Below, piece after piece: positions 1,597 to 26,552 of a stretch of DNA of 64,000 bases. Under the pieces are notes generated by a model. That model was not told the origin of the DNA, did no database searches, and worked only from the letters and a program-made list of their open reading frames with translations. Within the stretch, counting starts at the first letter, position 1; every line of letters starts with the position of its first letter. The translations under genes were made by a program, and so were the position numbers. Origin of the DNA: a virus (lineage: Duplodnaviria > Caudoviricetes); IMG/VR virus record IMGVR_UViG_3300017700_000931, positions 32,001-96,000 of that record; one strand, written 5' to 3'.

Positions 1597-1653
1597 TTTA
1601 TTATTAAATATATCACAAAGATACTAATGTTATTTGAATTAGCAATGATTTTT
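1597..1653 (-). promoter_or_regulatory. tRNA-cluster promoter, copy 1 of a 57-bp identical repeat
   Basis: Identical to 26496-26552; contains TATCTTTG (Bacteroidota -7 box) at 1616-1623 and an upstream TTG. Confidence 0.85.
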
Positions 1654-1704
1654 ATAAATTATTTTTAAAATATTTTTTAATCGATTGATTTTGTGATATT
1701 TAAC

Positions 1705-1929
1705 TCATGATAAATTAACTGATAATTCTCCATTATTAAACCAACTTTCGGTATAAGTGATACTATAGTCGGTTAATGTTTTACCTACAATTCTTTTCAT
1801 TTCATCACTATTACCTGTGATAATGATTACCGATTTGGAGCCACCCATCAGGTGGTATCCAATGAATTTATCTACCTCTCTGGATACATCCGCATGTTTT
1901 ATACCATGTAAATCTAAACTATTTTTCAT
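1705..1929 (-). CDS. stand-alone Smr-domain protein
   Basis: LDLHG ... IITGNS motifs. Confidence 0.75.
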   Translation of the reverse strand: MKNSLDLHGIKHADVSREVDKFIGYHLMGGSKSVIIITGNSDEMKRIVGKTLTDYSITYTESWFNNGELSVNLS

Positions 1930-2386
1930 TATTAATTTTTTTCAATATGTTAAGTACATTTATTACTGTTGCTTCATTATTGGTTTTGGAACCTAGCCAT
2001 AATAAATATCTTTTCATCTCATCTAATTCTAATAATGTAAGTTTACTAAGCCACTTACCTTTAAATTTACCAGTTATAAATGTGTAATCATCAGATACTT
2101 TCCTAATGACACCACATCTAGGATTTTTATTTGTATTTCTTATTGAGACCGGATGGATTAATTTACTACCTTCCAATTTTTTACACTCAATAACATACCT
2201 GTTACCCTTTCTTAGGGTTATTGTATCAAAAATTTTAGCACGGTTGGAGTGATATTCACCTGACATGTCTTCTCCGGCATCATTTCTCACACCGGACCAC
2301 ATCATTTGTAAATCACCAACAAAGTTATCTGATTTTTTTGGTTCTAAGTCTTTTAAACCATTAAATGTTGCATACAATCTAATCAT
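1919..2386 (-). CDS. hypothetical protein
   Basis: 155-aa ORF overlapping neighbours in an operon. Confidence 0.65.
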   Translation of the reverse strand: MIRLYATFNGLKDLEPKKSDNFVGDLQMMWSGVRNDAGEDMSGEYHSNRAKIFDTITLRKGNRYVIECKKLEGSKLIHPVSIRNTNKNPRCGVIRKVSDDYTFITGKFKGKWLSKLTLLELDEMKRYLLWLGSKTNNEATVINVLNILKKINNEK

Positions 2387-2906
2387 TTATTGGTCCCTCA
2401 TATTTTTCATCAGAATATTTAGATGATGTCACACAATCATAATCCATATCCCATGATGTTATTACAAAATTAAGTGATAAACACACAACACCATCGATAA
2501 TTTCTCTCCTTGCATGAAAATGACCTCGTCTATAATCAGAATGGCCATAATCATTTTCTTCCCACGTAGAAATTTCATTTAATAAATCACTAGCCGTTTC
2601 TTTTAAACGTTCTATAGATGTGATATCAATAATTCTGTTATGGTATCTATTAGAAAATGCCTCATAGTATTTTTTTATTAAATCAAAATCCATGTCTTCT
2701 AAAATCCAATGAATTTGTTCTTTAGTTGACATTTGTGGTAAAGTCAATAATGGCCTGTTTTTTAATTCAGTTGTTATCCGGCTTATTAATTCCTTATCTA
2801 GATTGGGTTTAGTAAGTTCTGAATGTAACTTAGTTTGTAAACCTTTATATGTGTACGTTGGGAATTCCATTGAGGCAAAATTACGTAATTTTTTATTAGT
2901 CTGCAA
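2379..2906 (-). CDS. hypothetical protein (start uncertain)
   Basis: ORF track; operon context. Confidence 0.55.
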   Translation of the reverse strand: MQTNKKLRNFASMEFPTYTYKGLQTKLHSELTKPNLDKELISRITTELKNRPLLTLPQMSTKEQIHWILEDMDFDLIKKYYEAFSNRYHNRIIDITSIERLKETASDLLNEISTWEENDYGHSDYRRGHFHARREIIDGVVCLSLNFVITSWDMDYDCVTSSKYSDEKYEGPIND

Positions 2907-2907
2907 T

Positions 2908-2937
2908 AAAAAAAGCCATACTTTTGGTATGGCTTTT
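2908..2937 (-). terminator. intrinsic terminator
   Basis: AAAAGCCATAC-loop-GTATGGCTTTT inverted repeat with U-run. Confidence 0.7.
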
Positions 2938-2959
2938 ACTTGTAAAAAATTTTTGAAAA

Positions 2960-3586
2960 TTATCTTTTACCATCTGCTTGTACTGTGATGCTTTGACCAC
3001 CTCTAGCTTGAGCTTCTTGAACTCTTGCTTCTCTATCAGCAGTGATTTGAGATTTGTAATCGTTAATTTGATTAACGTAAGAATCAATTTTATCTTTAGC
3101 TGTTGACAATTCTGCCTTCATTGTTGCAGAAGCAGCAGCAAATTCCAATTCTTTTGCTCTGATTTCTCCATTATGTCTTGCTGTGATAATAGCGATAGCT
3201 TTTTCAGTTTCAGCTTTAACATTTTTATCAAATGATGTTTTAGTAGATTCCAATTCACTCTTTAGTGAAGCTAGTTCACTAGCATCAATTGATACTTTAC
3301 CTTCTGATTTTAAGATTTCGTTTACCAATGAAGAAGCAGATTCTTTTGCTCTCAATTTAAGGTCTGCTTGCATTTCTCTTTCCTTTTCAGTGAAATTAAC
3401 ACTCAATTTCTCAAGTTCCGCTTGTTTTAATTCAATGTTTGTCACTAAATCTTCATATGATTCATTAGTTGCTTGTAAATCTGAAACGATTTTTGCTAAT
3501 GCTTCTGTTGCTTTGTTAATTTTTTGTGTACTAGCTTGTGCGATGCTGGTTACTTTGTTTATTTCATTACTTCCTTTTGTTGCCAT
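2960..3586 (-). CDS. coiled-coil hypothetical protein
   Basis: 208-aa heptad-rich ORF; TATCTTTG box at 3629-3636. Confidence 0.7.
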   Translation of the reverse strand: MATKGSNEINKVTSIAQASTQKINKATEALAKIVSDLQATNESYEDLVTNIELKQAELEKLSVNFTEKEREMQADLKLRAKESASSLVNEILKSEGKVSIDASELASLKSELESTKTSFDKNVKAETEKAIAIITARHNGEIRAKELEFAAASATMKAELSTAKDKIDSYVNQINDYKSQITADREARVQEAQARGGQSITVQADGKR

Positions 3587-3810
3587 TTTAATTTTTTTAA
3601 GGCTTTGTTATGGTTTTTATTTCTAGTACAAAGATACGAAGAAACCTAGATATAGGCAAGGGTTTTTCGAACTTTTTTTTATTTTTTTTAAAGTATTTCA
3701 GTACTGATTATCAGTACTTTATGTATTTTTAATGAAAATATTTTTAATATATTAAAATAGGTCGACATTAGTCCTAAATGTTATAGTGGTGATTGAGATA
3801 TTTATAACAT

Positions 3811-4551
3811 ATGAAGCTAGTGAAATTATATGAAAGTGTTATAAAAGAAGGTCAAGTTGAGTCTTGTATTTCACAATTTGGTATGGAATTATTTTCGCCG
3901 GAATTCGGTGGTGATGAACCTAACACCGAATTAGAAAATGATTATATTGAATTAATTCATAAATTCTCTGGCAAACCACAAGGTACTAGAATCGATACTA
4001 ATATGTATAATATGGCCAACAAATTAAAAACGTGTGTTTCATATTATCCTGATATTCTTCAATCGAGAGGTTACGCTTTTAGAGGTATTAAGATTTCTAT
4101 TGCTGACTTCTTAAAATCATTCCCAGAAATAAAAGAAAGAATTAGAATGGGGCAACCATTTCAAATGGTTTATAATGCTAAAACACCGATACAAAGTTGG
4201 GGTGATGATGAGGATTCAGCTAATGATGATTTTGGGTATCGTGGGACTAGTATTGCTTCAGTATTAGATAAATTTGATGCTGCTAGAAAATCTGGAACAC
4301 TAAATGAATTCATTCAACATATAATTCACCATAATTTGGATACTGAGATTCCAATCATGATTAAATACAGAATCCAAGCTGATGATTTTATTTTCAAAGG
4401 TAAGTATTTTAATTACCTATCCAATAATGATAATAACGAAATTCTAAGAATTGATAATCGCCCAATAGAAGTATTGGCTAAGGTTAGTCCGATGGAATTT
4501 TCAACAAAATTATTTGATTTATTACAAATACTTTCTAGTTCAAAGTATTAA
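3811..4551 (+). CDS. hypothetical protein, possibly virion-associated; weak ADP-ribosyltransferase-like motifs
   Basis: ATATTTATA at 3798; N-terminal LYE/IKE; AFRG..QSW..NEI spacing. Confidence 0.55.
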   Translation: MKLVKLYESVIKEGQVESCISQFGMELFSPEFGGDEPNTELENDYIELIHKFSGKPQGTRIDTNMYNMANKLKTCVSYYPDILQSRGYAFRGIKISIADFLKSFPEIKERIRMGQPFQMVYNAKTPIQSWGDDEDSANDDFGYRGTSIASVLDKFDAARKSGTLNEFIQHIIHHNLDTEIPIMIKYRIQADDFIFKGKYFNYLSNNDNNEILRIDNRPIEVLAKVSPMEFSTKLFDLLQILSSSKY

Positions 4552-4786
4552 CTTCTATTAGAATACCTAGAATTCCACCCATATCGGTGGCATGAAACAT
4601 TAGTTTCTCTCCAAAATGTTTATGCAACGATTCTTTGATTTTTGTACCATCACAATTTGGTTTTAATTGAAATTTTATTTCTTTATCAGTCACATTTTCA
4701 TCATCATCGAAAGTTATTTCGTCAATCCCATATTTACTTTTCAAGTAAGCAGCAATTTCTATATGCAATTCTTGTATCTCTGTCAT
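4535..4786 (-). CDS. hypothetical protein
   Basis: ATG at 4786; ATATTTAT motif upstream. Confidence 0.55.
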   Translation of the reverse strand: MTEIQELHIEIAAYLKSKYGIDEITFDDDENVTDKEIKFQLKPNCDGTKIKESLHKHFGEKLMFHATDMGGILGILIEVNTLN

Positions 4787-4844
4787 ATCAATAAAGTTAT
4801 ATATAAATATTGACAAACACAACCAAAAGAACTATAATTATCAA

Positions 4845-5156
4845 ATGGGAACAGTATACTTACTAAATGCTTGGGGGACCAATAAATACAAGATTGGGTT
4901 CACAAAAAGGGATATCAATTTAAGAATTAAACAATTACAAACTGGTTGCCCGGATGAAATTGTTTTAGCTAGAAAATATGAATGTGAAAATTATCAAAAA
5001 GTAGAAAAATGGCTCCATAAACAACATAGCTCCAAACGTGTTGAAGGTGAGTGGTTTTTACTGGAGGATGCTGATGTTTATAGTTTTATAAACGATTGTG
5101 ATAAGATTCATACCACAATAAAGTTATTAATCGAAGACAATCCTTTTTATAAATAA
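4845..5156 (+). CDS. GIY-YIG/T5orf172-family nuclease
   Basis: VYLL...YKIGFT...RIKQLQTG...GEWF pattern. Confidence 0.8.
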   Translation: MGTVYLLNAWGTNKYKIGFTKRDINLRIKQLQTGCPDEIVLARKYECENYQKVEKWLHKQHSSKRVEGEWFLLEDADVYSFINDCDKIHTTIKLLIEDNPFYK

Positions 5157-5183
5157 AAATGGGACCCACTGGGTCCCATTTTA

Positions 5184-6185
5184 TTATGTTAGAAATTCTT
5201 TATAAAAAAATTCAAACTTTTCATAAATTTTATCAGTGGTTTCATCCAAAAGAAATTTATCATATTCTTCTGAGGAACCAAAGTAATCTTTAAACGAAGT
5301 TAGAGCTCTACCCAATTCTTTACCCTTAATACCATAACGTCTCATGATAACATCACCACTAAACTTTGACTTAATGTAAAGTTTTTTACATTCCAAGTAT
5401 TCTAATTCACGCATTTTCTCAGTCATTCTGGCTTCTGGGAAAAATTTATTTGCCCTAGCTACTGAAATTGCTTTGTCTTCGAATTCATAAGACTTGTCCG
5501 AATAGTGTTCAGCAATGTATGTCAAAAATGACATGTATGATTTTCTTTTAATATTTCGCTCACGATTTATTTTATTCAAATTTTTCAATTCAAACATTTC
5601 GGCATCGAAATATTGATTTTTAATTACGTATTCGAATATATCTTCAAGTGTAGAAAAACCTTTTTGCCACTCTGAATAATCAAATCCTAAGAATTCAAAT
5701 ATCTTAGGATAATCCTTAGAAATCATTACTGAACCAATTTTTTGGTCTTTAAAGTAATGGTTATACCATAAACCTTCTTGACCATATTTTAATCCAAGCT
5801 TCTGAGCAATTCTACCAATAAAATTACCTAGGTCATTAAACGCCAAGTAATGATAATTGGAATCAAAGTCTGCTGCGGAACAAGTAATTAAATCAACTTG
5901 AATTTCTTTATAATCAAATGACCAAGCATTACCATTATGAAAAATTTCATTAGGCATGAATGTCTGGGTAATATATGAATGCATATTCCCAAAAACATTT
6001 GAATTATCATCCATAGAGATGATGATATCAATATCACCAAAACTTTCCTTTGTTGAATAAAATAAAGGTACTTCAACTCTTTTGAAAGTTTGTCTAAGAA
6101 TGTTAACTAGCTTATCTGAAGCCACATCAAATTCTTCTCTAGAATAACGTCTAGTATATGTTGACTTTAATGCTAATCCACCCAT
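5184..6185 (-). CDS. Pol-beta-superfamily nucleotidyltransferase-like protein
   Basis: KESFGDIDII motif and downstream QVDLI; GLKYGQEGL. Confidence 0.65.
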   Translation of the reverse strand: MGGLALKSTYTRRYSREEFDVASDKLVNILRQTFKRVEVPLFYSTKESFGDIDIIISMDDNSNVFGNMHSYITQTFMPNEIFHNGNAWSFDYKEIQVDLITCSAADFDSNYHYLAFNDLGNFIGRIAQKLGLKYGQEGLWYNHYFKDQKIGSVMISKDYPKIFEFLGFDYSEWQKGFSTLEDIFEYVIKNQYFDAEMFELKNLNKINRERNIKRKSYMSFLTYIAEHYSDKSYEFEDKAISVARANKFFPEARMTEKMRELEYLECKKLYIKSKFSGDVIMRRYGIKGKELGRALTSFKDYFGSSEEYDKFLLDETTDKIYEKFEFFYKEFLT

Positions 6186-6186
6186 T

Positions 6187-7755
6187 TTATTTTCTGTTAG
6201 TTTCCATATAACGGAATACATCCGCAACTTTTTGCATTACTGCTCGGTGTTCTTCATTACCACCTTTAGTAGAGAACAATTCTTTACCCAAAATTTGTAA
6301 TGCATCACTAACACTATCGTGTTGTTTGATTGCTCTACATTCAGCAAATTTAATTTGTTTTTTATACGAATCCGCAGCTGAAACAATATCTTCATTACTG
6401 ATTTGATTCCCTTGTCTGTGAATCATGTATGCTTTTGCTTTATCGATTACCTCAGAAGCGAAAGCCGGAACAATACCACACAATGAGTTAATTGCAGCAG
6501 TATGGTCACCTTCAACCATTAATGACTTACCTTCTTTATCAACAACCAATTTATCGATAAATTGTTTTGCTGTTTCTTCATCCAAAACACCAAAGTTAAT
6601 TAATGAACCAATACGTTTACCTCTTAAGAATGTTGGCTCAATTACTTCAATGTGATTTGTCGTAAAGATTGAGATGATTGGGAGATTTTTAGTGTCTCCG
6701 CCATCAAGAGTATTTACAATTTCTTGAATTTTTTCACCACGCTCTCCTCGAAGAACTTGGTCAATATCTTCAGTAAACAAAATAACTCCATTACCATTTC
6801 TGGCATAGTTTTCAGCAATTTTCAAAGCCTTAGCTGAATGTTTACATTCTTTAACATAAATGAAGGTCCAACCAAACTCTCTGGCAATTTTACCAAGCCA
6901 AAAAGCGGTTAAGGTTTTACCAGTACCATAGATACCTTCCATTAGTACTCCCAATTTTATATCAAGACCTTCTTTGCGGCATTTTTCAGTTTCCTTGATT
7001 CTGGCTAGAATCGGAATAAGACCATCAAGGATGTCTTTTGAAAATAAAATTTTATTTTCATCGATAGTTGATAAATCCATGAAACTTGGTTCATTAGCAT
7101 AGTCATCGTCATCAAACTCAAGTTCAATTGCTTGAGCTAAATACAATGCTTCTTTCGCTAATATCTCGTTAGTCATATCAATGACTTTTCTGATGTCTGG
7201 TTCGAATTTTTTTCTGATTCGAGCATGAACTGTTATAGTAGTATCCTCATAATCATAATCAAGGTCGATATAACACTCATCATCAAAACCCGGAAGTTGA
7301 ATTCGTCCCCACGGAACTTTTACTTCTTCTCCATTTGGTAATGAAACACTGATTAATTCAGGAATTTTATCACCAGACATACCACCAGTACTAGTTTGGT
7401 TAAAAACACCCAAAACCTTTTCAACTGCTTTTGAAATAGCATATGCTCCTTCATGTTGAAAACATTTTAATTCATAATGAATTTCAACTAGTTGTTTTGT
7501 TGCATGAATTTTATCATTCATGAACTTTAAAGCATATTCAAAACCTTTTTCTTGGGCTAGACCAACCATTTCGGTTAACTCTGCTTCATTCATTTCCGTT
7601 TGAGTTGGTTTGAACATGTCTGTATTGACAGTAGATTCCTCTGTTTCATTTTCTACAGATGTTTCAGAACCCAATTTTTTAATCGGATTTGATTTTTCAG
7701 AAATGCTAGTTTCACCAGCGTTTTTTTCTTTTGTAAGTTCGTTCGTGTTAGCCAT
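6187..7755 (-). CDS. AAA+ ATPase
   Basis: Walker A GIYGTGKT, Walker B-like LFTEDID, TTN sensor, RGKR finger. Confidence 0.85.
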   Translation of the reverse strand: MANTNELTKEKNAGETSISEKSNPIKKLGSETSVENETEESTVNTDMFKPTQTEMNEAELTEMVGLAQEKGFEYALKFMNDKIHATKQLVEIHYELKCFQHEGAYAISKAVEKVLGVFNQTSTGGMSGDKIPELISVSLPNGEEVKVPWGRIQLPGFDDECYIDLDYDYEDTTITVHARIRKKFEPDIRKVIDMTNEILAKEALYLAQAIELEFDDDDYANEPSFMDLSTIDENKILFSKDILDGLIPILARIKETEKCRKEGLDIKLGVLMEGIYGTGKTLTAFWLGKIAREFGWTFIYVKECKHSAKALKIAENYARNGNGVILFTEDIDQVLRGERGEKIQEIVNTLDGGDTKNLPIISIFTTNHIEVIEPTFLRGKRIGSLINFGVLDEETAKQFIDKLVVDKEGKSLMVEGDHTAAINSLCGIVPAFASEVIDKAKAYMIHRQGNQISNEDIVSAADSYKKQIKFAECRAIKQHDSVSDALQILGKELFSTKGGNEEHRAVMQKVADVFRYMETNRK

Positions 7756-8014
7756 TTTTTAGTTCTTGAGCTTGTTTGTATAAAAATTCCATTTGTTTTT
7801 TCGTGTCAGTTAAACAATCAATTCTAACTTTTTTATCAGGACACGTTCTGATATTAGAATCACCAAATTTATATCTAGTTATTGTTTTTTTCTTTAAAAA
7901 ATTATCAATCTGAGTAAGTGTTCCGGTTAAGCCTTTACAAGTGATAAGGATTTCACCATCTACTTTAGTAAAAGTGATTGGGTAACCACCAAAAGTTAAT
8001 TCTTGATTATCCAT
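7748..8014 (-). CDS. hypothetical protein
   Basis: ORF with TACATTTG box at 8019-8026. Confidence 0.6.
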   Translation of the reverse strand: MDNQELTFGGYPITFTKVDGEILITCKGLTGTLTQIDNFLKKKTITRYKFGDSNIRTCPDKKVRIDCLTDTKKQMEFLYKQAQELKNG

Positions 8015-8067
8015 AGTGCAAATGTATAAATAATATTTCGATAATCCAAATTATTTTCGAAAATAAT

Positions 8068-8673
8068 TTAAAATTTAATTAAACCACCATTAATTAAACC
8101 AATAATATATTGAGAGTGTTGCAGATTCATTTTTTTTGCTGTAGTGGCTCCGGCATCATTTTTTACTTCTGGTTTTCTATCTACTGCACTACCAATAGTC
8201 ATGTGCATACCAAAATGTGGTTTGCCTAATCCTAATTCGCTTCTTATTGCTTGTAGTTCACCCCTTTCATTATGAGGAATTATTAACCACCAATGAAGTC
8301 CGTTATCGGAAAATCGTGGCTTAATATCTAAAACAATTTTTATTTCTTTTTTGTGCCACTTAGCTTTAACCTTATCCCAATTACCATTCATATCACTAAC
8401 ATGGTCATTAATGAATGAAATATGTGTACCTCTAAGTGGTTTAGTCAATTCTAGTCCAAATCTTTTTTTTATGAACCAAGCATAATACTCAGTAGTATCA
8501 TCCTTAATAATAACCATAGCTAATCTTTTCCAAGATGATTGGGATTTGTGTTTGTTTGTTTTATCATCTGGGTCAAAATAAATTTTGCCTGTTAATGTTA
8601 TTGTATCCATATCCTTCATAATTTGGAGGGGCAATTGGTGGTTGAATGTTGTGTCTATTTTCTTCTTTTTCAA
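8068..8673 (-). CDS. 2H phosphoesterase-like protein
   Basis: Two HxS/T motifs: HISF and HMTI. Confidence 0.6.
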   Translation of the reverse strand: MKKKKIDTTFNHQLPLQIMKDMDTITLTGKIYFDPDDKTNKHKSQSSWKRLAMVIIKDDTTEYYAWFIKKRFGLELTKPLRGTHISFINDHVSDMNGNWDKVKAKWHKKEIKIVLDIKPRFSDNGLHWWLIIPHNERGELQAIRSELGLGKPHFGMHMTIGSAVDRKPEVKNDAGATTAKKMNLQHSQYIIGLINGGLIKF

Positions 8674-9205
8674 TAAATCGTATTCTAGTTCTAAATGTTG
8701 CTGGGTCTACTAATCTAATCGTTTGATAACCCAACATATCCATTGTGCCAATAACATCATCTAGGTTTGAACAATTAGATAATGAAAATCTTGCTGTTTC
8801 ATTATCCAAATGATTAGATAATTGCATTATCATAACCCTAACTAATTCATCTAAACCATATGGTCCTAGTGAATCAAAATCACTGGCGAATTCAACATTA
8901 ATTGTTTTACCACGAGGATACTTATCCCAAGCACCATCATGCTTAGTGTAACCATATAATTTTAACCATTCAGCAATAACTAAATTAATAAGACTTGCAC
9001 CAAAAGGATAAAATAATTTTAATTCTTCTTCGATTTGAATACCTAAAACTAATTCATCAGACCATTTATCTTTTATAATAAAATCTTTAGGGATTACAAC
9101 TCGGCTATTATTGTAATCATCCTTTTGGCTTACAACATAATTTTTAACTAGATAATCAAAAACTAATGTTTGCTTGTGAAATAAATCATCTAAATTATTT
9201 TTCAT
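8573..9205 (-). CDS. hypothetical protein
   Basis: ORF, ATG at 9205. Confidence 0.6.
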   Translation of the reverse strand: MKNNLDDLFHKQTLVFDYLVKNYVVSQKDDYNNSRVVIPKDFIIKDKWSDELVLGIQIEEELKLFYPFGASLINLVIAEWLKLYGYTKHDGAWDKYPRGKTINVEFASDFDSLGPYGLDELVRVMIMQLSNHLDNETARFSLSNCSNLDDVIGTMDMLGYQTIRLVDPATFRTRIRFIEKEENRHNIQPPIAPPNYEGYGYNNINRQNLF

Positions 9206-9241
9206 ACACAACCCTATGAAAAATAATTTATTAAGTCAAGA

Positions 9242-9988: not shown

Positions 9989-10202
9989 TATCTGGTTTTT
10001 GTTTATCGAAATCATAATTCGGCTTTAAGGGTTTGTATCTAAACTCAGTATCAGTTGTTTCAGCTTTAACCTCTTTGGTGGTGCTCTTTAACATCTCAGG
10101 TCTATTCTCTTCAATCCAGACAATATAGCTTGGGTCATTTTCGGTAACCCAACTTAATGTTTTACCTTTATGTTTACCACTTCTGAATATTAGTTCACCC
10201 AT
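9972..10202 (-). CDS. small protein with FRSGKHKGK motif (DUF3820/ExoX C-terminal-like)
   Basis: GKHKGKTL...SYIVW. Confidence 0.55.
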   Translation of the reverse strand: MGELIFRSGKHKGKTLSWVTENDPSYIVWIEENRPEMLKSTTKEVKAETTDTEFRYKPLKPNYDFDKQKPDNGQTN

Positions 10203-16537: not shown

Positions 16538-16541
16538 TTTA

Positions 16542-19029: not shown

Positions 19030-19340
19030 GATTCAATTATTTTTCGATATTTGGCAGTCATTACATTTAATAAATGAGTTTCAACACTCAAAGGAAATTT
19101 TTTATTCTTAACTAATCTTTTTGATTCAGTAATAAATAAATTACCAAAATATTTTAAATGAACACTTGATTTCATTAATCTCAAAGCATTCAATTTTTGG
19201 TCATACTTACAGAATATTGTATTAACTTCATGTATGTGTGCCGGATATTCTTTATTCAATATTTCAGCCAATTTTATTCCAGCTACCATATCGGTACCAC
19301 ACCAAGTAGTATGGTCAGCTATGTAAATTCTGTTTTTCAT
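19026..19340 (-). CDS. hypothetical protein
   Basis: ORF in operon. Confidence 0.55.
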   Translation of the reverse strand: MKNRIYIADHTTWCGTDMVAGIKLAEILNKEYPAHIHEVNTIFCKYDQKLNALRLMKSSVHLKYFGNLFITESKRLVKNKKFPLSVETHLLNVMTAKYRKIIES

Positions 19341-19343
19341 ATT

Positions 19344-19790
19344 TTATTTTGCTAAGCTCCTTACCGCAACTAACAATTCAGTCATTGAATGTACTTGTCT
19401 GACACCATACCTTGTAGCTACAATATCTACATTACCTTTTCTCCAAAAACCCTCTGGACAATACAATATCATCTTACCGCTGGCAGCATAAAGACCAAGC
19501 TCTAATAATGAAATAGGACTTTTTGTGTTCTCATCAAAATACATGAGAATAATATCAGATTTATCAAGATGGTCCAATTCCCATTCTACTTGTTCTCTGA
19601 ATTGTGGGTTATGAATAGATTGTTCCCAAGAACTATCCCAATTGTCTCTACGTGGATTAAAAATTATAACATTATAATCCTTTAGTTCTTCTTCAATTTT
19701 AGATTGCCAGTCTTCAGCAACACCCATTTCAATTGACCCAGCTAAAAATATGGATATTTTTCTAAACGGTGGTTTAATTACTTCTGCCAT
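19344..19790 (-). CDS. nucleoside 2-deoxyribosyltransferase-like protein
   Basis: IFLAGSI..WQ..FNPRR..QVEWE..SPISLLELG. Confidence 0.8.
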   Translation of the reverse strand: MAEVIKPPFRKISIFLAGSIEMGVAEDWQSKIEEELKDYNVIIFNPRRDNWDSSWEQSIHNPQFREQVEWELDHLDKSDIILMYFDENTKSPISLLELGLYAASGKMILYCPEGFWRKGNVDIVATRYGVRQVHSMTELLVAVRSLAK

Positions 19791-20227
19791 TATTTTAATT
19801 TATTTGAATCAAATTCATCATAAACTAACTTAGTTTTACTTTCTTGAATTTTACCATTCTGAACATAATAACGAGAAGGTGGGTCACCAAATCCTTGGTC
19901 CCAAGTAATATCTAATTGAAATAAAGCCGTTGGGTGTGATTTCGAAAAAATAATTAAATCTTCTTTTATATTACCACTTCCGGTTTCATTAACCCCACCT
20001 GAATTATTTATTAAATAATCTGCTGATGCACTCTCTGCTCTAAATAATTTAATAATATCTTTGACTTCAACTTCTTGCGATGATTTTCCTAACATATTAC
20101 CACACTTAGAACAATAAACTGCGTCTAATGGATAATGTGTCATGCAATTTCTACACTGCATGGATGGTTCGCTAGATAAAATTGATGGTTTTAAAACCAT
20201 CAATTTATGTTTATTATGGTAACTCAT
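19790..20227 (-). CDS. zinc-ribbon hypothetical protein
   Basis: CxxC..CxxC. Confidence 0.55.
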   Translation of the reverse strand: MSYHNKHKLMVLKPSILSSEPSMQCRNCMTHYPLDAVYCSKCGNMLGKSSQEVEVKDIIKLFRAESASADYLINNSGGVNETGSGNIKEDLIIFSKSHPTALFQLDITWDQGFGDPPSRYYVQNGKIQESKTKLVYDEFDSNKLK

Positions 20228-21147
20228 TATTTCGTTTTTATTTCTGTAACAATTCCACTTAAATTAATATGAGAATTTAGTTTTACCCAATTAACAATGT
20301 CATTTGACATGACTGGTTTACCACCATCAGCAACATTTACTGCTAATGTAATGTGTGGTATTGCATTAGTACTTGGGTATCCAATCACTTTAACAGCAAT
20401 TACCTTATCAGTCATACCAATTTCAGTAGCCATTAAATTAACTTTCTTACCATTATCTTCCTTCATTTCGTCTGGAAGACCCTTTCCAAATATAATTGTC
20501 ATGTGGTGAGCAATTGGCTCCCAATCTTTAGGTATTTTATTAGCTAAAGCAGTGAATAATTTGCTTCTGGAAGCATCATCTAAAACAACCGCAGAAAATA
20601 AAATCTTAGGTTTATTTTTGAACATAGGTTTTGCTTTAATCACCTTTTCAAGTGTTAAAGGACCAATAGAATTCATTGACTCAATCATCATTTCAATCTT
20701 ATCTAATGGAACACCATGGGTATTTCTTTCAGCTAATTCCTCAGCCAATAATCCGGCAGTACCGACCTCAACAAATTCAATGTTTTCATCAGCATAACCA
20801 AGCTTTAAAGCAAACTCAACCAAATCTTTTGGCTCATTGGCTTTAATATTTGTGTTATCAATAATAACTGGGGAAATATCAGCTACCATAGAAGCCTTAG
20901 CGTTTTTATTGTTTTCGCTATGTACTTTATGTAGTGGTGAAAAATCTTTGGCTTCAATCATATCAGCAAAAAACTTATTGTAGTCATGTTTTGACTCAAT
21001 AATATCATCCGCTGAATGAATCACACCATTTTTAACAAGCCTTTTAGCTGCGGTAGATTTTCCAGAACCCGGAATACCACGCATAATAACCAACACATTG
21101 TTTGGTTTAGTAACTTCTATACCTAATGAATTTTTCATGATTAACAA
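20227..21147 (-). CDS. polynucleotide kinase-like (AAA_33) fused to 2H phosphoesterase
   Basis: GIPGSGKS, IIDNTN, RNTHGVP; HHMTI and HITL. Confidence 0.8.
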   Translation of the reverse strand: MLIMKNSLGIEVTKPNNVLVIMRGIPGSGKSTAAKRLVKNGVIHSADDIIESKHDYNKFFADMIEAKDFSPLHKVHSENNKNAKASMVADISPVIIDNTNIKANEPKDLVEFALKLGYADENIEFVEVGTAGLLAEELAERNTHGVPLDKIEMMIESMNSIGPLTLEKVIKAKPMFKNKPKILFSAVVLDDASRSKLFTALANKIPKDWEPIAHHMTIIFGKGLPDEMKEDNGKKVNLMATEIGMTDKVIAVKVIGYPSTNAIPHITLAVNVADGGKPVMSNDIVNWVKLNSHINLSGIVTEIKTK

Positions 21148-21350
21148 GAACCAAATTTATAAGACATGAACATACCATCACTATCACTCCAATTGAAGCC
21201 CAAATCATCCAGTCTTTTTATATCTTCTGGAGAAATACCATCCTTCGTGATTTCTTGATTGATATACATTACTTCATGTTCGCAATGTGTTGGGCAGTCA
21301 ATGTCTTTATATTTTTGAAATATTTGTAACGCTTCAATTAATTCTTTCAT
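21141..21350 (-). CDS. hypothetical protein
   Basis: ORF; TATCTTTG at 21355-21362. Confidence 0.6.
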   Translation of the reverse strand: MKELIEALQIFQKYKDIDCPTHCEHEVMYINQEITKDGISPEDIKRLDDLGFNWSDSDGMFMSYKFGSC

Positions 21351-21390
21351 GAAGCAAAGATAGGAATAATTATTTAATTCACCAAATTTT

Positions 21391-22014
21391 TTAGTAAGTA
21401 AATTCGTCTAACATGATATATGGTTTATCCATAGCATTTAAAGCAATCTCAACTTCTTTAAGACACTCATGGATATGTCCCCCACATAATACTATATTTG
21501 AATAATTTGACATTTCATCCATTAAATCTGGAATGTGTAATGCATCGTCAGAAAATTCAACTAACGCTCTAATATCTTCATCACCATACTTATCAATGAA
21601 ACCATCCCAAAATTCTTCACCGAGGTCCCTAGAATCATTAACACCCTCAGCAATCATATATTTCACCAAATTAACGATTTTATCTTCGTCAATACCTTGG
21701 TCCATACAATACCTGAAGAAAGCATAACCCTTATCGTAATAGTGTGCATTAAAAGCTATATCTTCATCTAACCCTTGTTCGTACCACCAATTTTTATAAT
21801 CGTTCTCAGATATCATTCCTAATGTATCCGCACCATTATAAAGAAATGTTACCCTAGAAAGGAGTGGCATATTTTCATTGATAACATCAGCTAATTGAGA
21901 AGCCATTCTACCAAAACCACTTTGATATTCTGGTTGGATGTCAACGACTACTAAGTGCTTACCCGTAAGGTCCTCATTTAATACTTGTTCTAATATTGGT
22001 AATAATTTAATCAT
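21391..22014 (-). CDS. isochorismatase-like hypothetical protein
   Basis: LVVVDIQ near N-terminus; CGG..ECL. Confidence 0.5.
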   Translation of the reverse strand: MIKLLPILEQVLNEDLTGKHLVVVDIQPEYQSGFGRMASQLADVINENMPLLSRVTFLYNGADTLGMISENDYKNWWYEQGLDEDIAFNAHYYDKGYAFFRYCMDQGIDEDKIVNLVKYMIAEGVNDSRDLGEEFWDGFIDKYGDEDIRALVEFSDDALHIPDLMDEMSNYSNIVLCGGHIHECLKEVEIALNAMDKPYIMLDEFTY

Positions 22015-22889
22015 GAATAATAAGATTGATATACATCACTAGTTAAACCATAATCTATAATGATGATTCTATCTTGACCATCTCTTTTAACTAATCCAAA
22101 AGTACTAAGTTTTTTTAAATCACCAGCCGGAATGCCATAATTACCAATGTATTGAAATATACCATACATGAATTCATTTTCCCACATATCAGCATAAACT
22201 TCTTTATCAATATGCATTTTAAATGGTTGTTGGCCACGTCTACTATTGACATCTTCACCGTAATTATGTACCGCTGCAACAAATTGTTCAAATGAATAAC
22301 CAGTAACTCTTTTGAAATCACCCTTATTAACTTTTCTAGCTAATTCCATTTCAATCCACAAATCATTTTGGTCATATTCAAATACACGAGCAACAATATC
22401 TTCCAAATCGGAATAATTGCTATAACTAGCTTCAACTTCATTTTGGGCTAACCCTTTTTTATTCTTGGCTAATTTAAGTACCTTTTCATCATCTACTTTA
22501 AAAACAATTCTGGAACTACCGGATGAGATTCTTTGTAAATTTTGTTGACAATACTTGATTCTTTGGTTGAATGATTTTAATGTTTTGAATTCATCAATAT
22601 TAAAATTTGATGGGTACTCTTCATCAACCATCATATTTTCTATGATATTAAAGGTTAATGACTCAGTATTTTGTGTTTCTTCGAGTTTTTTAATGATTCT
22701 CATTTTTAGAGCTGGTTTACCATTAATATGTAAGTCACCCTTATCTTCATCCCAATCAATATCCTTAACAACAACTTTTTTGTTTTTGAATTTACCCATT
22801 AGAATTGTATCACCAACTTCAATTGGTAACTCAATTACTTCCGATAACTTTTGTTTTAGTATTTTTTTTATGATGTCCTTCATAATCAT
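22011..22889 (-). CDS. hypothetical protein with kinase-like C-terminal region
   Basis: GSSRIVF..VLKLAK..EME..IIDYGL. Confidence 0.55.
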   Translation of the reverse strand: MIMKDIIKKILKQKLSEVIELPIEVGDTILMGKFKNKKVVVKDIDWDEDKGDLHINGKPALKMRIIKKLEETQNTESLTFNIIENMMVDEEYPSNFNIDEFKTLKSFNQRIKYCQQNLQRISSGSSRIVFKVDDEKVLKLAKNKKGLAQNEVEASYSNYSDLEDIVARVFEYDQNDLWIEMELARKVNKGDFKRVTGYSFEQFVAAVHNYGEDVNSRRGQQPFKMHIDKEVYADMWENEFMYGIFQYIGNYGIPAGDLKKLSTFGLVKRDGQDRIIIIDYGLTSDVYQSYYS

Positions 22890-22932
22890 AAATATTTGCT
22901 AGTTATGAAAAGACGTATTGGTAATTTTATTG

Positions 22933-23019
22933 CGGAAGAAGTAGGTCTCGAACCCAATGCGATTTTCACGCACCAATGGATTAGCAATCCACGCTCACAC
23001 CCCGATGAGTCCATCTTCC
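22933..23019 (-). tRNA. tRNA-Ser(GCU)
   Basis: GTGGA-TTGCTAA-TCCAT; long variable arm; G73. Confidence 0.85.
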
Positions 23020-23081
23020 ATTTATAACCACTATTATAATAGGTGGTTAGTCTTTTTATGACTAACCGAATATTTATTAGT

Positions 23082-23489
23082 ATGGAAACTAAAATATGCC
23101 CTACTTGTAATATCGATAAATCAATCGATGAATACTATTCACAAAATGATAGACCAAATGGTCAATCGTCTTGTAAAAAATGTTTTAATATTTATTGTAG
23201 TGAACGATGGATAAAGACTAAAATTAAAGCGATAGAATATAAAGGTTCTAAATGTCTTGATTGTACCCATTCATATCCTAATCAACCTTATGTTATTTTT
23301 GATTTTCACCATAGAGACCCATCAAAAAAAGATGCTGATTGGAACAAATTAAAAAAACGTTCTTGGAATAAGATTACTCAAGAACTTGATAAATGTGATT
23401 TACTTTGTTCAAATTGCCACCGTATTAGGCATCACAATATTAAATTAACAGTACCCCTATCAGGACTCGAACCTGAACTAAATGCTTAG
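23082..23489 (+). mobile_element. HNH homing endonuclease inserted in the tRNA array
   Basis: Zn CxxC pairs, FDFHHRDP..CDLLCSNCHRIRH; opposite strand; 3' end overlaps tRNA-Arg antisense. Confidence 0.85.
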
Positions 23490-23523
23490 AAGGCATTTGT
23501 GCTATCCATTACACCATAGAGGC
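23452..23523 (-). tRNA. tRNA-Arg(UCU)
   Basis: AATGC-CTTCTAA-GCATT. Confidence 0.9.
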
Positions 23524-23530
23524 AAATTTG

Positions 23531-23602
23531 TGACCCCGACAGGATTCGAACCTGTGACCGTCGGTTTAGAAAACCGATGTTCTTCCGCTGAACTACGGGG
23601 CC
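23531..23602 (-). tRNA. tRNA-Arg(UCU)
   Basis: TCGGT-TTTCTAA-ACCGA. Confidence 0.85.
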
Positions 23603-23612
23603 AATAATTTTG

Positions 23613-23685
23613 TAGTTCCCAAGAGATTCGAACTCTTACTTCAACGTTCGTAGCGTTGGGTGCTATCCAGTTACACCAAGGAACC
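23613..23685 (-). tRNA. tRNA-Arg(ACG)
   Basis: CAACG-CTACGAA-CGTTG. Confidence 0.9.
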
Positions 23686-23695
23686 ATTTATTTGG

Positions 23696-23772
23696 TACAG
23701 ATGATAGGATTCGAACCTACATTGCGCTCCGTTACAGCTTCTAGTTTCGAAGACTAGGCTGGCTACATCTGT
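23696..23772 (-). tRNA. D-armless tRNA-Arg(UCG)-like
   Basis: Acceptor ACAGATG/CATCTGT, CTAGT-CTTCGAA-ACTAG, canonical T arm, no D arm. Confidence 0.65.
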
Positions 23773-23773
23773 A

Positions 23774-24007
23774 TTAAAATATCATTCTTTTCCTCACAAT
23801 TAAATCATGGTCATTATATGATTTAAAATCCCATCTAATTTTATCCACTTTTTGACCTTTTTCTAACCTCATTCCTTTTATTTTATTATTCTCACAAACA
23901 CTACCAATAAAATAACCAAACTTTCTAAGTATTGGATTGATGAGGACCTTTAACAAAGACCTATGATTAACAATTTTGTTATCTTTATAAAGTATTCCCA
24001 ATTTCAT
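23774..24007 (-). CDS. hypothetical protein inside tRNA cluster
   Basis: 77-aa ORF filling gap. Confidence 0.6.
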   Translation of the reverse strand: MKLGILYKDNKIVNHRSLLKVLINPILRKFGYFIGSVCENNKIKGMRLEKGQKVDKIRWDFKSYNDHDLIVRKRMIF

Positions 24008-24008
24008 G

Positions 24009-24080
24009 TGACTCCGACAGGAATCGAACCTGTATCAAAAGTTTAGGAAACTTCTATTCTATCCGTTGAACTACGGAGCC
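24009..24080 (-). tRNA. tRNA-Arg(CCU)
   Basis: GAAGT-TTCCTAA-ACTTT. Confidence 0.9.
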
Positions 24081-24118
24081 ATTATCATTAATAATAAATA
24101 CTCTATAAAAATCAAGAG

Positions 24119-24190
24119 TAGCGATATACAGAATCGAACTGTAATTTCAAGGATATGAGCCGAGTGTAATAACCACTATACGATATCGCC
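24119..24190 (-). tRNA. tRNA-Met(CAU), elongator-type (weak anticodon stem)
   Basis: CTCGG-CTCATAT-CCTTG. Confidence 0.7.
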
Positions 24191-24292
24191 ATGTAAAAGT
24201 AATTTAATTATTGGGAGGTGCCCGACTTCTCCTTTTTGTATGGGTCTTTGTCAAATGAGCCAAATTTCAAACTCAACAATAAATTACTTTTG

Positions 24293-24380
24293 CTACTGGG
24301 GTGGGATTCGAACCCACGGTGGAGAATTAACTCGTCAGATTAACAGTCTGATGCATTCGGCCAACTATGCGAACCCAGTA
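24293..24380 (-). tRNA. tRNA-Asn(GUU) with long variable arm
   Basis: TCAGA-CTGTTAA-TCTGA; G73; variable hairpin GAG-TTAATT-CTC. Confidence 0.85.
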
Positions 24381-24390
24381 ATAAATATTG

Positions 24391-24463
24391 CTCTCCTACT
24401 TGGATTCGAACCAAGGACCCTTCGCTTAACAGGCGAACGCTCTAACCGCTGAGCTATAGAAGA
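24391..24463 (-). tRNA. tRNA-Asn(GUU)
   Basis: TTCGC-CTGTTAA-GCGAA; G73. Confidence 0.95.
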
Positions 24464-24544
24464 ATGTAAAATGGAGCTGAGATATTGGATTAATCGGTTT
24501 AATCCTACACCCACTTATTCAAAATATTCGTGGACTCCATTTTG

Positions 24545-24618
24545 TGGGCCTTGTTGGATTCGAACCAACCACCTACTGATTATGAGTCAGTTGCTCTAAC
24601 CGAATGAGCTAAAGGCCC
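24545..24618 (-). tRNA. tRNA-Ile2(CAU), lysidine type
   Basis: ACTGA-CTCATAA-TCAGT; GGGCCTT acceptor and D arm like ileX. Confidence 0.8.
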
Positions 24619-24623
24619 AATTT

Positions 24624-24710
24624 AAGAGTGGAGGATTCGAACCTCCGCAGGGTGCTACCCGTCCCACGACCTTCCTTTGGAATCGAACCAAACTTCAACC
24701 ATTGACTCTT
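24624..24710 (-). ncRNA. tRNA-like RNA with two T-arms
   Basis: TTTGG-TTCGATT-CCAAA and GGAGG-TTCGAAT-CCTCC within AAGAGT/ACTCTT closing stem. Confidence 0.55.
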
Positions 24711-24712
24711 AG

Positions 24713-24789
24713 TACTGACGATGGGATTCGAACCCACTTGTAACCTATTACCCTTTCAACAAGATATAAGCTTGAGGGGATACATCAGC
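24713..24789 (-). tRNA. D-armless tRNA-Ile(UAU)-like
   Basis: Acceptor GCTGATG/CGTCAGT, CAAG-CTTATAT-CTTG, canonical T arm, no D arm. Confidence 0.6.
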
Positions 24790-24919
24790 ATTTGTAGTTT
24801 TATGCCCTAGAGAAACTACAACTCCGTCTCATTTCCGGCTAACGTCTGGTACCATCTTTTAGCCTTATAATCGATACCACATAGTGTGCATGCAAGCAGA
24901 GGCATATGGTGACTTCGAG

Positions 24920-25003
24920 TTGTGTCGGTGGGAGTTGAACCCACTTTGAGGATATACCTCCCAGCTTATCAGGCTGGTGCCTAAACCGTCCGACCCCGAC
25001 ACA
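24920..25003 (-). tRNA. tRNA-Ile(GAU) with long variable arm
   Basis: CCAGC-CTGATAA-GCTGG; variable hairpin GAGG-TATAT-CCTC. Confidence 0.85.
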
Positions 25004-25064
25004 ATAATCTAATTCTAAGCTTCCGTTACCTGAACGGTCTATGAATTAGTAACAGTCTAGCTCG

Positions 25065-25136
25065 TTGTCTCGCCCAGACTCGAACTGGGAATACATCGGT
25101 ATCAGCGATGCGTGATAACCATTTCACCACGAGACA
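25065..25136 (-). tRNA. tRNA-Ile(GAU)
   Basis: CATCG-CTGATAC-CGATG. Confidence 0.85.
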
Positions 25137-25147
25137 ATTTAAATTAG

Positions 25148-25218
25148 ACGAAATGATGAGAGTCGAACTCATACCAACCCCTTCGCTGGGGCCGTTCTAG
25201 CCATTAAACTACATTTCT
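25148..25218 (-). tRNA. degenerate tRNA (anticodon ambiguous, CGA or GCG)
   Basis: Good D and T arms; irregular anticodon arm GGCCCCAGCGAAGGGGTT; A1:G72 mismatch. Confidence 0.5.
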
Positions 25219-25256
25219 ACTCTCCTTTACTAGTATTTCAGAGAGACTTGCAAGTG

Positions 25257-25328
25257 CGGACAGGGTCAGACTCGAACTGACATCCCCTCGCTTAACAGGC
25301 GAGTGTTTTACATTAGTACTACCTGTCC
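25257..25328 (-). tRNA. tRNA-Asn(GUU)
   Basis: CTCGC-CTGTTAA-GCGAG; G73. Confidence 0.85.
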
Positions 25329-25385
25329 ATAGGTAAAAGAGCCTTGCACTCTATTTGGAAGTCACATCTATGCTTCTAAGTCAAG

Positions 25386-25459
25386 GGTGACTGACGGGAA
25401 TCGAACCCGCATTAACAGGACCACAACCTGTCGTGTTAGACCATTACACTACAGTCACC
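25386..25459 (-). tRNA. tRNA-His(GUG)
   Basis: ACAGG-TTGTGGT-CCTGT; G-1:C73. Confidence 0.9.
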
Positions 25460-25469
25460 ATATATTTTG

Positions 25470-25557
25470 CGGATAGAAAGAGATTCGAACTCTTGCAACG
25501 ATTCAACGTTCTACTGCCTTTCCAAGACAGCCTCTTTAGCCACTTGAGTACCTATCC
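25470..25557 (-). tRNA. tRNA-Ser(GGA)
   Basis: CTGTC-TTGGAAA-GGCAG; long variable arm. Confidence 0.9.
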
Positions 25558-25563
25558 ATTTTG

Positions 25564-25645
25564 CGGAAGACAAAGTAATCGAAACCTGTACGATGTACGT
25601 ACCCCACGGGTTCAAGCCGTGTTTGCCACCTTGACGGTGCCTTCC
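25564..25645 (-). tRNA. tRNA-Ser(UGA), weak T stem
   Basis: CACGG-CTTGAAC-CCGTG; G73. Confidence 0.75.
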
Positions 25646-25652
25646 ATTTTTG

Positions 25653-25739
25653 CGGAGAGGGTGGGACTCGAACCCACACACCTCTAGGGCCTACGGTTTT
25701 CAAGACCGTTGCAGTTAGGCCAACTCTGCTTACCTCTCC
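25653..25739 (-). tRNA. tRNA-Ser(UGA)
   Basis: ACGGT-CTTGAAA-ACCGT; long variable arm. Confidence 0.9.
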
Positions 25740-25741
25740 AG

Positions 25742-25829
25742 TAGACATGTATGAGATTCGAACTCATGGTCCCTACACGGGACACCTGTTTCACACAGGC
25801 CGCTTTAAACCACTCAGCCAACATTATCT
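25742..25829 (-). tRNA. atypical tRNA-Ser(UGA)-like, G33, distorted 8-bp acceptor stem
   Basis: GCCTG-TGTGAAA-CAGGT; variable arm GTCCC-GTGTA-GGGAC; A73. Confidence 0.55.
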
Positions 25830-25830
25830 G

Positions 25831-25920
25831 CACACCCGTAGGGATTCGAACCCTCAGCCAATCGTAAGACTTCCGTAGAAACTGATTTGGAGCCAGCTGG
25901 TCACGCCAATGAGCGGGTGT
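25831..25920 (-). tRNA. tRNA-Trp(CCA) with 25-nt variable region
   Basis: GCTGG-CTCCAAA-TCAGT; G73; short D arm. Confidence 0.7.
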
Positions 25921-25930
25921 GTATAAATTG

Positions 25931-26009
25931 CACGGATGGAAGGAATCGAACCCTCTAGACTTTCGTCACGGTTTTGGAGACCGCTGTCCCACCATAGGAC
26001 ATCACCCGT
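25931..26009 (-). tRNA. tRNA-Trp(CCA) with variable-arm hairpin
   Basis: GCGGT-CTCCAAA-ACCGT; GAC-GAAA-GTC; G73. Confidence 0.85.
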
Positions 26010-26065
26010 GTATTACCAATACGTCAAAGAACTATTGAATCTACATTTAGATTCACATTTTGTTG

Positions 26066-26137
26066 GGTGTAAGGACGGTACCGACCCGTCTTCTCTAGGT
26101 TCACAGCCTAGCACTTCACCTTAAAGCTTCAAACACC
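26066..26137 (-). tRNA. tRNA-His(GUG), atypical T-loop
   Basis: CTAGG-CTGTGAA-CCTAG; G-1:C73; T-loop GTCGGTA. Confidence 0.7.
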
Positions 26138-26308
26138 ATTTATCTTAACAAATATAATCATGTTTCCATGTTCCTTTTTAAAAACCAGCTCACCATGATA
26201 TCCGGTGGCAATAGCTATTATTGTATATTTGTCAATTATCTTATCGAAATTTTTTTTAAAGTATTCCAACTTTTCACTCCCTAACTTTCTCACTAAATCC
26301 TCTTCCAT
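26129..26308 (-). CDS. hypothetical protein, first gene after attenuator 2
   Basis: ATG at 26308 (MEEDLVRK...). Confidence 0.55.
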   Translation of the reverse strand: MEEDLVRKLGSEKLEYFKKNFDKIIDKYTIIAIATGYHGELVFKKEHGNMIIFVKINGV

Positions 26309-26327
26309 AACCAAAAATTTTAAGCAC

Positions 26328-26356
26328 AAAAAAAGCTCGACCTTGTGAGTCGAGCT
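26328..26356 (-). terminator. intrinsic terminator of attenuator 2
   Basis: AGCTCGAC-TCACAAG-GTCGAGCT followed by U-run. Confidence 0.85.
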
Positions 26357-26384
26357 AAATCCTTATTACCTATATCTTGTTACA

Positions 26385-26477
26385 TTATGATACTTTGGTT
26401 ATGGACATACCCGACTCGGTTGAAGAATTACGTCTCCAATTACTAATCGAAATCATATGTATGTGCATTGTCATCAT
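26385..26477 (-). CDS. leader peptide 2 (MMTMHIHMISISNWRRNSSTESGMSITKVS)
   Basis: 30 codons; 18 of first 19 are Met/His/Ile/Ser/Asn/Trp/Arg; GAGTCGGGT (26409-26417) pairs with terminator 5' strand. Confidence 0.85.
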   Translation of the reverse strand: MMTMHIHMISISNWRRNSSTESGMSITKVS

Positions 26478-26495
26478 TTTGTAAAAATTGTTTTG

Positions 26496-26552
26496 TTTAT
26501 TATTAAATATATCACAAAGATACTAATGTTATTTGAATTAGCAATGATTTTT
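26496..26552 (-). promoter_or_regulatory. tRNA-cluster promoter, copy 2 of a 57-bp identical repeat
   Basis: Identical to 1597-1653; TATCTTTG at 26515-26522. Confidence 0.85.

Follow-up and report, generated by a model that had tools for sequence, protein, structure and literature searches.

Two clusters of transfer RNA (tRNA) genes in a phage genome are accompanied by the same 57-nucleotide (nt) tract, which raises the questions of what this tract does for the clusters and why its two copies are identical. The stretch of DNA analyzed here, referred to as the window, comprises 64,000 nt (bases 32001 to 96000) of a single virus record, IMGVR_UViG_3300017700_000931 (genome G000; 362,532 base pairs [bp], G+C 32.7%). 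The genome carries 57 tRNA genes, which were called with ARAGORN and Rfam. We named the regulatory modules A and B (outside the window) and C and D (inside the window), and G001 and the L-numbered loci designate relatives. All relevant features, namely the promoter cassettes, leaders, terminators, tRNA clusters, and the gene for transfer-messenger RNA (tmRNA), are carried on the minus strand. Positions refer to the window unless they are marked as genome positions. On evidence that is computational throughout, each tRNA operon probably has a strong Bacteroidota promoter followed by a leader-peptide attenuator that would provide feedback on tRNA supply, and gene conversion would have made two of the promoters identical.

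The original prediction held that 1597-1653 and 26496-26552 are identical, and indeed all 57 of 57 nt agree. The 57-mer occurs exactly twice in the whole genome. Upstream of the cassette, the C and D sequences are 85% alike over 96 nt, and directly after the cassette they are unrelated. The cassette had also been described as heading the clusters. This wording needs one correction: all features are read on the minus strand, and it is in the sense of transcription that the cassette precedes the clusters. Read on this strand, the repeat consists of an A-tract and TTG, which a 19-nt spacer separates from TATCTTTG, and 19 further bases follow. In cassette C (1597-1653), the proximal A-tract is followed by the -33 TTG (1645-1643), the spacer, and the -7 box TATCTTTG (1623-1616). 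The cassette also spans approximately the first 10 to 15 transcribed nt, and a conserved distal A/T element reaches to about 1675. The corresponding parts of cassette D (26496-26552) are the -33 TTG at 26544-26542 and the -7 box at 26522-26515.

Promoters recognized by the primary sigma factor of Bacteroidota (sigma-A, sigma-ABfr) have the consensus TAnnTTTG at -7 and TTTG near -33 (PMC7366714). The cassette agrees with this consensus in its TATCTTTG box and in the (A)TTG located 19 nt upstream. It extends the consensus in that TTGCTAATT is conserved, two A/T elements lie upstream, and the first transcribed bases are conserved as well. There were 126 occurrences of TTG-N18-20-TAnnTTTG in the genome, most of them on the coding strand, compared to 26 in shuffled sequence. 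The extended promoter class, which combines TTGCYAnTT with the upstream A/T elements, has eight genome sites, all on the minus strand between 16 and 80 kilobases (kb) of the genome. Four of them belong to the tRNA clusters, and one each precedes a lone tRNA-Phe, the tmRNA, and a noncoding stretch ending in tRNA-Met, with one further site; six of the eight adjoin tRNA or tmRNA genes. No further promoter-like site was found in the interior of clusters C and D. The identity of the two copies, their fit to the sigma-A consensus, and the enrichment of the motif class provide good support for the prediction that this repeat acts as a strong promoter of the Bacteroidota type and starts two of the four tRNA operons of the phage.

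The tmRNA promoter had been proposed to share sequence with the cassette, and an exact copy of the 16-mer ATCACAAAGATACTAA was located at 41465-41480; the tmRNA gene (41052-41434, minus strand) follows about 30 nt downstream. At up to 2 mismatches, ATCACAAAGATACTAA had 4 matches in the window, compared to 0.12 expected. The tmRNA promoter (41469-41498) is of the same extended class, TTG-N19-TATCTTTG. Another promoter of this class, at genome 27173-27202 (L010), belongs to the lone tRNA-Phe gene (genome 26985-27058), which has neither a leader open reading frame (ORF) nor a terminator.

In the window, each cassette is followed by such a leader ORF. Leader C (1489-1581, minus strand) and leader D (26385-26477, minus strand) run from 1581 to 1489 and from 26477 to 26385, and both contain 30 codons plus TAA, as had been claimed. 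The claim that the two leaders differ completely also held, and they could not be aligned beside the identical tract. Cluster C (129-1416, minus strand) contains the genes for one Cys, three Val, six Leu, and one Met tRNA, and its tRNAs are confined to these amino acids; the Leu anticodons are CAA, TAA, GAG, AAG, and TAG. Cluster D (22932-26136, minus strand) is confined to His (two genes), Trp (two), Ser (anticodons TGA, GGA, and GCT), Asn (three), Arg (anticodons GCG, CCT, TCG, ACG, and TCT), Ile (two), and tRNAs with the anticodon CAT (three), and its total counts four genes that ARAGORN did not report with default settings. Residues 4 to 19 of leader C are Leu, Val, or Cys at 11 of 16 positions, and all 16 of the corresponding residues of leader D are Met, His, Ile, Ser, Asn, Trp, or Arg. 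The six Leu codons of leader C (CTC, CTT, TTA, CTA, TTG, and TTA) are of five kinds, one per Leu anticodon of cluster C, and they include CTC although it accounts for only 2% of the Leu codons of the genome. Leader C probes all 9 anticodon species of its cluster, and leader D probes 11 of 13.

The original prediction had proposed a search of the remaining genome for further leader units. This search identified two more, A and B, both outside the window. Each consists of a homologous promoter, a leader of 29 to 31 codons, a terminator, and tRNA genes. The leader of unit A starts at genome 16153, and its cluster (genome 13229-15932) encodes tRNAs for Pro, Gln, Tyr, Thr, Gly, and Lys; 14 of the 16 core residues of the leader are amino acids of its own cluster. 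The leader of unit B starts at genome 31705 and is followed by a cluster (genome 30312-31540) for Phe, Glu, Gln, Asp, and Ala. Its core matches the cluster at 11 of 16 residues, and the four Ala codons are each used once. The amino acids that are missing from the tRNAs of the window were found in clusters A and B, and together the four units cover all 20. Neither of the two other large clusters lacked such a promoter or carried an unmatched leader. When every leader was compared with every cluster, the scores for the own cluster were 14, 11, 11, and 16 of 16 (A, B, C, and D, respectively), and those for foreign clusters were 0 to 4 (binomial P for the own cluster, 5e-9 to 5e-4). We compared these scores with those of 948 ATG-started ORFs of 25 to 40 codons from the whole genome. 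Leaders A, B, and D were each the only ORF to reach their score, and that of leader C was reached by four. The leaders also contain 41 distinct cognate codons, compared to 33.2 +/- 2.3 expected from the codon usage of the genome (P = 0.0007). A Pfam search with the leader peptides returned no family.

Between each leader and its tRNA genes lies an intrinsic terminator. The shared GCTCGA core that had been noted in both modules of the window was confirmed in the two terminators, whose 5' arms lie at 1464-1454 and 26356-26348. Terminator C (1431-1464, minus strand) continues with a 3' arm at 1448-1438 and a T-run at 1437-1431; its hairpin has -15 kcal/mol and is followed by T9. Terminator D (26328-26356, minus strand) has its 3' arm at 26342-26334 and its T-run at 26333-26328. 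In these two modules, 24 to 28 nt separate the TAA of the leader from the G+C-rich hairpin. Across the modules, the hairpins have -13 to -19.5 kcal/mol, are followed by T6 to T9, and lie 23 to 31 nt after the stop codon. Genome 8-60 kb contains ten strong terminators on the minus strand, and four of these sit exactly between module promoters and tRNAs.

We refer to the 5' arm of the terminator as segment 3. In every unit, a segment within the leader ORF at approximately codons 18 to 26 (segment 2) is a near copy of the 3' arm of the terminator and is able to pair with segment 3. It occupies codons 20 to 24 in both C and D, in agreement with the earlier claim that the antiterminator has the same position in the two modules. 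Segment 2 of C (1510-1524, minus strand; core GTTCGAGCT) is a copy of the 3' arm, and its duplex with the 5' arm (-15.9 kcal/mol) was the best among 13 terminators tested. Segment 2 of D (26406-26420, minus strand; core GAGTCGGG) is complementary to the 5' arm and the loop, and its duplex has -15.5 kcal/mol. Folding of the nascent RNA up to the terminator loop gave predicted 2:3 pairing probabilities of 0.72 to 0.88. Before segment 3 is made, segment 2 was predicted to pair upstream in 13 of 13 modules (P of 0.57 to 0.84). The predicted partners are codons 4 to 16 (up to 18 in B) and overlap the regulatory codons. In module C, the predicted anti-antiterminator, segment 1, lies at 1540-1569 (minus strand, approximately codons 5 to 14). 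We then placed a ribosome footprint of 28 nt on the folded nascent leader RNA in an equilibrium model. In this model, 2:3 pairing was lost with the ribosomal A site at codons 19 to 28 and was kept with the A site at codons 2 to 17, which are the regulatory codons.

The original prediction had regarded the cassette and leader as a duplicated module that was re-tuned to the contents of each cluster. This was supported, except that the promoters of A and B are homologous and not identical to the 57-nt cassette (core identity of 64 to 81%). Leaders of types B, C, and D have in common the N-terminal sequence M-x-T-x-N-N-I. All leader types share TATG(T) beside segment 2, within a conserved stretch around the antiterminator, and the core alone differs. 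A common N terminus and a common TATG(T) combined with differing cores fit a common origin with re-tuned cores, and the sequences are consistent with one module that was duplicated and then adapted to each cluster.

A blastn search with 7.9 kb beside cluster C against cultured phages identified no relative, and an exact search for 21 nt of the promoter in viral contigs gave 0 matches. A degenerate 30-nt promoter pattern identified G001, a complete relative of 353,143 bp with terminal repeats, and five metagenome contigs with modules (L024, L050, L052, L064, and L067). The pattern occurred at 62 metagenome loci, of which 5 had modules with tRNAs; the others were ordinary promoters in unrelated contigs. 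G001 contains the same four clusters, collinear with those of G000, in the order D, C, B, A. The leader cores of the relatives match the same amino acid sets at 9 to 16 of 16 residues, and the tRNAs visible downstream fit the content of the leaders. In orthologues of type C, Leu, Val, and Cys are rearranged and the composition is kept, which argues for selection on the codon content and not on the peptide. The terminator arms vary among the relatives (GCTCGA, CCCGAT, CCCAG, and GCCTTCC), and segment 2 changes in step with them. Duplexes between segment 2 and the terminator averaged -14.1 kcal/mol for own pairs, compared to -9.0 kcal/mol for foreign pairs, and none of 200,000 permutations reached the observed sum for own duplexes. 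Two further observations concern the same modules. In most of the related modules, the predicted transcript begins with a small G+C-rich hairpin (L012:1545-1562, and just after the -7 box in L050, L052, L064, and L067), which modules C and D of G000 lack. In addition, a tRNA of cluster B in G001 (L017:2269-2341) has the anticodon TTA and would read the stop codon TAA.

We infer from the folding models how such a module may work. The promoter would start a leader RNA, of which a ribosome would translate the ORF of 29 to 31 codons, with codons 4 to 19 read by the tRNAs encoded downstream. With plentiful cognate tRNAs, the ribosome would reach codons 19 to 28 and cover segment 2, or segments 1 and 2 would re-pair; with segment 2 blocked in either way, the terminator hairpin would form and transcription would end after about 180 nt. 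If any cognate tRNA were scarce, the ribosome would stall on segment 1. Segment 2 would then be free to pair with the 5' arm of the terminator, and RNA polymerase would continue into the tRNA genes. The predicted outcome is that tRNA supply would feed back negatively on itself, through four channels among which the 20 amino acids are divided.

Leader-peptide attenuators are well known from the amino acid operons of enterobacteria, including trpL, hisL, leuL, thrL, pheL, and the multivalent leader of ilvGMEDA. The phage modules resemble these in having a short ORF rich in regulatory codons and a terminator soon after the stop codon, and the four RNA segments with 1:2, 2:3, and 3:4 alternatives resemble those of the trp attenuator. 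The closest match is to the ilv and thr leaders, in which several amino acids are sensed by one leader. As in an attenuator, a codon-enriched leader and an intrinsic terminator are present, and the folding models predict the antiterminator and the anti-antiterminator. The modules differ from the known attenuators in their phage setting with Bacteroidota-type promoters and in a core whose codons sample the isoacceptors and stand for as many as seven amino acids. They also differ in gating tRNA genes and not biosynthetic enzymes, so that the loop would feed back on the tRNA supply itself. The leaders of the window reached the gathering cutoff of no Rfam leader family; their scores were below it for Thr_leader (RF00506; 23 bits, cutoff of 55) and Trp_leader (RF00513; 15 to 18 bits, cutoff of 41).

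Several observations weigh against an attenuator of this kind or limit its reach. Once the modeled ribosome has reached the stop codon, the core of segment 2 is no longer covered in C and D at equilibrium, and the probability that segment 3 is paired rises again to about 0.8. Because 2:3 pairing re-forms at this point, termination must rest on kinetics or on 1:2 re-pairing, and we rejected simple equilibrium masking by the ribosome as its whole cause. The match of leaders to clusters is also imperfect: 15 of the 29 residues of leader C are noncognate, and leader D contains no codon that probes the Arg anticodons CCT and TCG of its cluster. The start codon and approximately the first 11 codons are absent from modules A and D of G001, which keep segment 2 and the terminator. 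This indicates that the sensor is dispensable there or has been lost. Several isolated tRNA genes, such as that for tRNA-Phe, have the promoter class without a leader, so that gating does not extend to all tRNA genes of the phage. Finally, the scheme assumes that the leader is translated and that transcription and translation are coupled in the host.

The truncated units of G001, in which the tRNA clusters persist, could also indicate that each promoter-ORF-terminator unit is an independent small gene for a small hydrophobic or polar peptide or a small RNA, with the tRNA genes merely adjacent, unregulated and transcribed by read-through or from other promoters. The units do have a promoter and a terminator of their own, and leader C is hydrophobic, like a membrane peptide. 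Nevertheless, we regard independent genes as very improbable. They would not account for the amino acid match to the downstream tRNAs in four of four modules here and in the relatives, for the raised codon diversity, or for orthologues that keep their composition and not their sequence; moreover, sequence changes in the terminator arm are matched by changes in part of the ORF, clusters C and D have no alternative promoter motif inside them, and the peptides belong to no Pfam family. Less probable still is a sensor made of RNA only, in which the leader would bind tRNAs through codon-like triplets without translation, in the manner of a T-box. T-box riboswitches, known from Firmicutes, work without translation, rely on a single specifier codon, carry a conserved T-box sequence, and regulate genes for aminoacyl-tRNA synthetases or amino acid metabolism. 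The phage modules share with them the choice between terminator and antiterminator and the predicted sensing of tRNA status, and their output concerns tRNA; they have none of the distinguishing features of T-boxes. The cognate triplets lie in one unbroken frame from ATG to TAA with a conserved length of 23 to 34 codons, and there are 11 to 16 cognate codons instead of a single specifier. Furthermore, an Rfam search with both leaders of the window gave no T-box match even at an expectation value (E) of <= 10. The leader-peptide attenuator remains the best reading and is probable.

Why, then, are the two promoter copies identical? We compared 105 pairs of 15 promoters for the longest identical run and for core identity. 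The three longest runs were found between C and D in G000 (57 nt), between C and B in L067 (57 nt), and between A and D in G001 (49 nt). All three are pairs of paralogues within one genome, and the pair is a different one each time. Orthologous promoters had a median identical run of 12.5 nt and a mean identity of 73%. Since the longest runs occur within a genome, involve differing pairs, and border on leaders that cannot be aligned, recent short-tract gene conversion explains them best. On this sequence pattern, the identity of cassettes C and D is best explained by recent conversion between paralogous promoters and not by a recent duplication of the whole module. In G001, the identical 49-nt promoter of A and D (L013:1500-1560 and L011:1500-1560) joins the leader ORF partway through, and this cassette resembles the tmRNA promoter of G000 (41469-41455) in its first transcribed bases.

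Alternatively, gene conversion might have played no part, and the identity would stem only from strong purifying selection for an optimal promoter sequence or from a duplication of the promoter region in the very recent past. All modules indeed have a conserved promoter architecture that includes the upstream A/T elements, and the identical tract has the same functional limits in the C-D pair of G000 and the C-B pair of L067, from the proximal A-tract to about +15. However, selection alone would predict uniform copies and is disfavored compared to conversion, as promoters A and B differ from C and D in the same genome and orthologous promoters differ between genomes. The change of the identical pair from genome to genome and the unalignable leaders beside the tract likewise make this explanation unlikely. 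It counts against our reading that gene conversion is deduced from the pattern of identities, and lineage-specific selection on the promoter could contribute. Two other sources of the repeat were ruled out: an assembly artifact, by the collinearity of G000 and G001 for the four modules and their unique flanks, and the insertion of a mobile element, by the alignment of all four promoters beyond the identical tract. The concerted evolution of the promoter cassette within each genome is a new point beyond the attenuators themselves, and the promoters offer a clear example of regulatory DNA that evolves in concert within a virus genome.

It is debated why phages carry tRNA genes and how these genes are controlled. 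Phage tRNA sets have been reported to take the place of host tRNAs that degradation or anticodon nucleases remove (PMC10264068, PMC11555353, and PMC10802454). The phage described here has a similarly large tRNA complement, which covers all 20 amino acids; the reports appear to concern the role of the tRNAs, and our analysis concerns the control of their genes. Full-text literature searches aimed at the attenuation of tRNA genes identified no account of ribosome-mediated or leader-peptide control. We lean toward interpreting the four modules as a tRNA homeostat with four channels, in which stalling on a checklist of own codons would detect the loss of specific host tRNAs and replace only these, and in which repeated gene conversion would keep the promoters uniform. 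Its triggers could be host shutoff, starvation, or defense nucleases that cut tRNAs. If true, this would be the first known ribosome-mediated attenuation controlling tRNA genes and would extend attenuation of the trp type to a new class of targets. The phage would gauge in real time how much translation its host can support, through the decoding speed of the same codons, and its tRNAs would be tied directly to tRNA depletion by host shutoff or anticodon nucleases. The sorting of the tRNA genes into amino acid-specific blocks would also be explained. At about 180 nt, the modules are compact and could act as natural reporters of tRNA supply.

Other features of the window lie within or near the same transcription units. 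An ORF of 59 codons (26132-26308, minus strand) occupies the region between terminator D and the first tRNA gene, within the predicted gated transcription unit. It is kept in G001 (L011:1689-1859, 75% identity) and in L050; when it was used as search bait, G001 was the sole match, and a Pfam search returned no family. The variable arms of Met, Cys, Asn, and Ile tRNAs are normally short. In the window, the genes for a Met, a Cys, an Asn, and an Ile tRNA (303-389, 1330-1416, 24292-24380, and 24919-25003, respectively, minus strand) are unusually long, with 85 to 89 nt. Cluster D also includes a degenerate tRNA-like element (24713-24789, minus strand), which scored 25.6 bits with the Rfam tRNA model (cutoff of 29) and carries a T-arm-like repeat.

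The promoter of the extended class at 38763-38734 precedes the stretch that ends in tRNA-Met. The tRNA-Met gene lies at 38116-38188, and the approximately 520 nt between promoter and gene contain no conserved ORF. The intervening region (38189-38735, minus strand) includes a weak tRNA-like part at 38417-38511 and matched no other Rfam family. It is conserved blockwise with G001 (L016:1530-2263, alignment A3), where extra blocks are inserted, and is a candidate for a large structured RNA.

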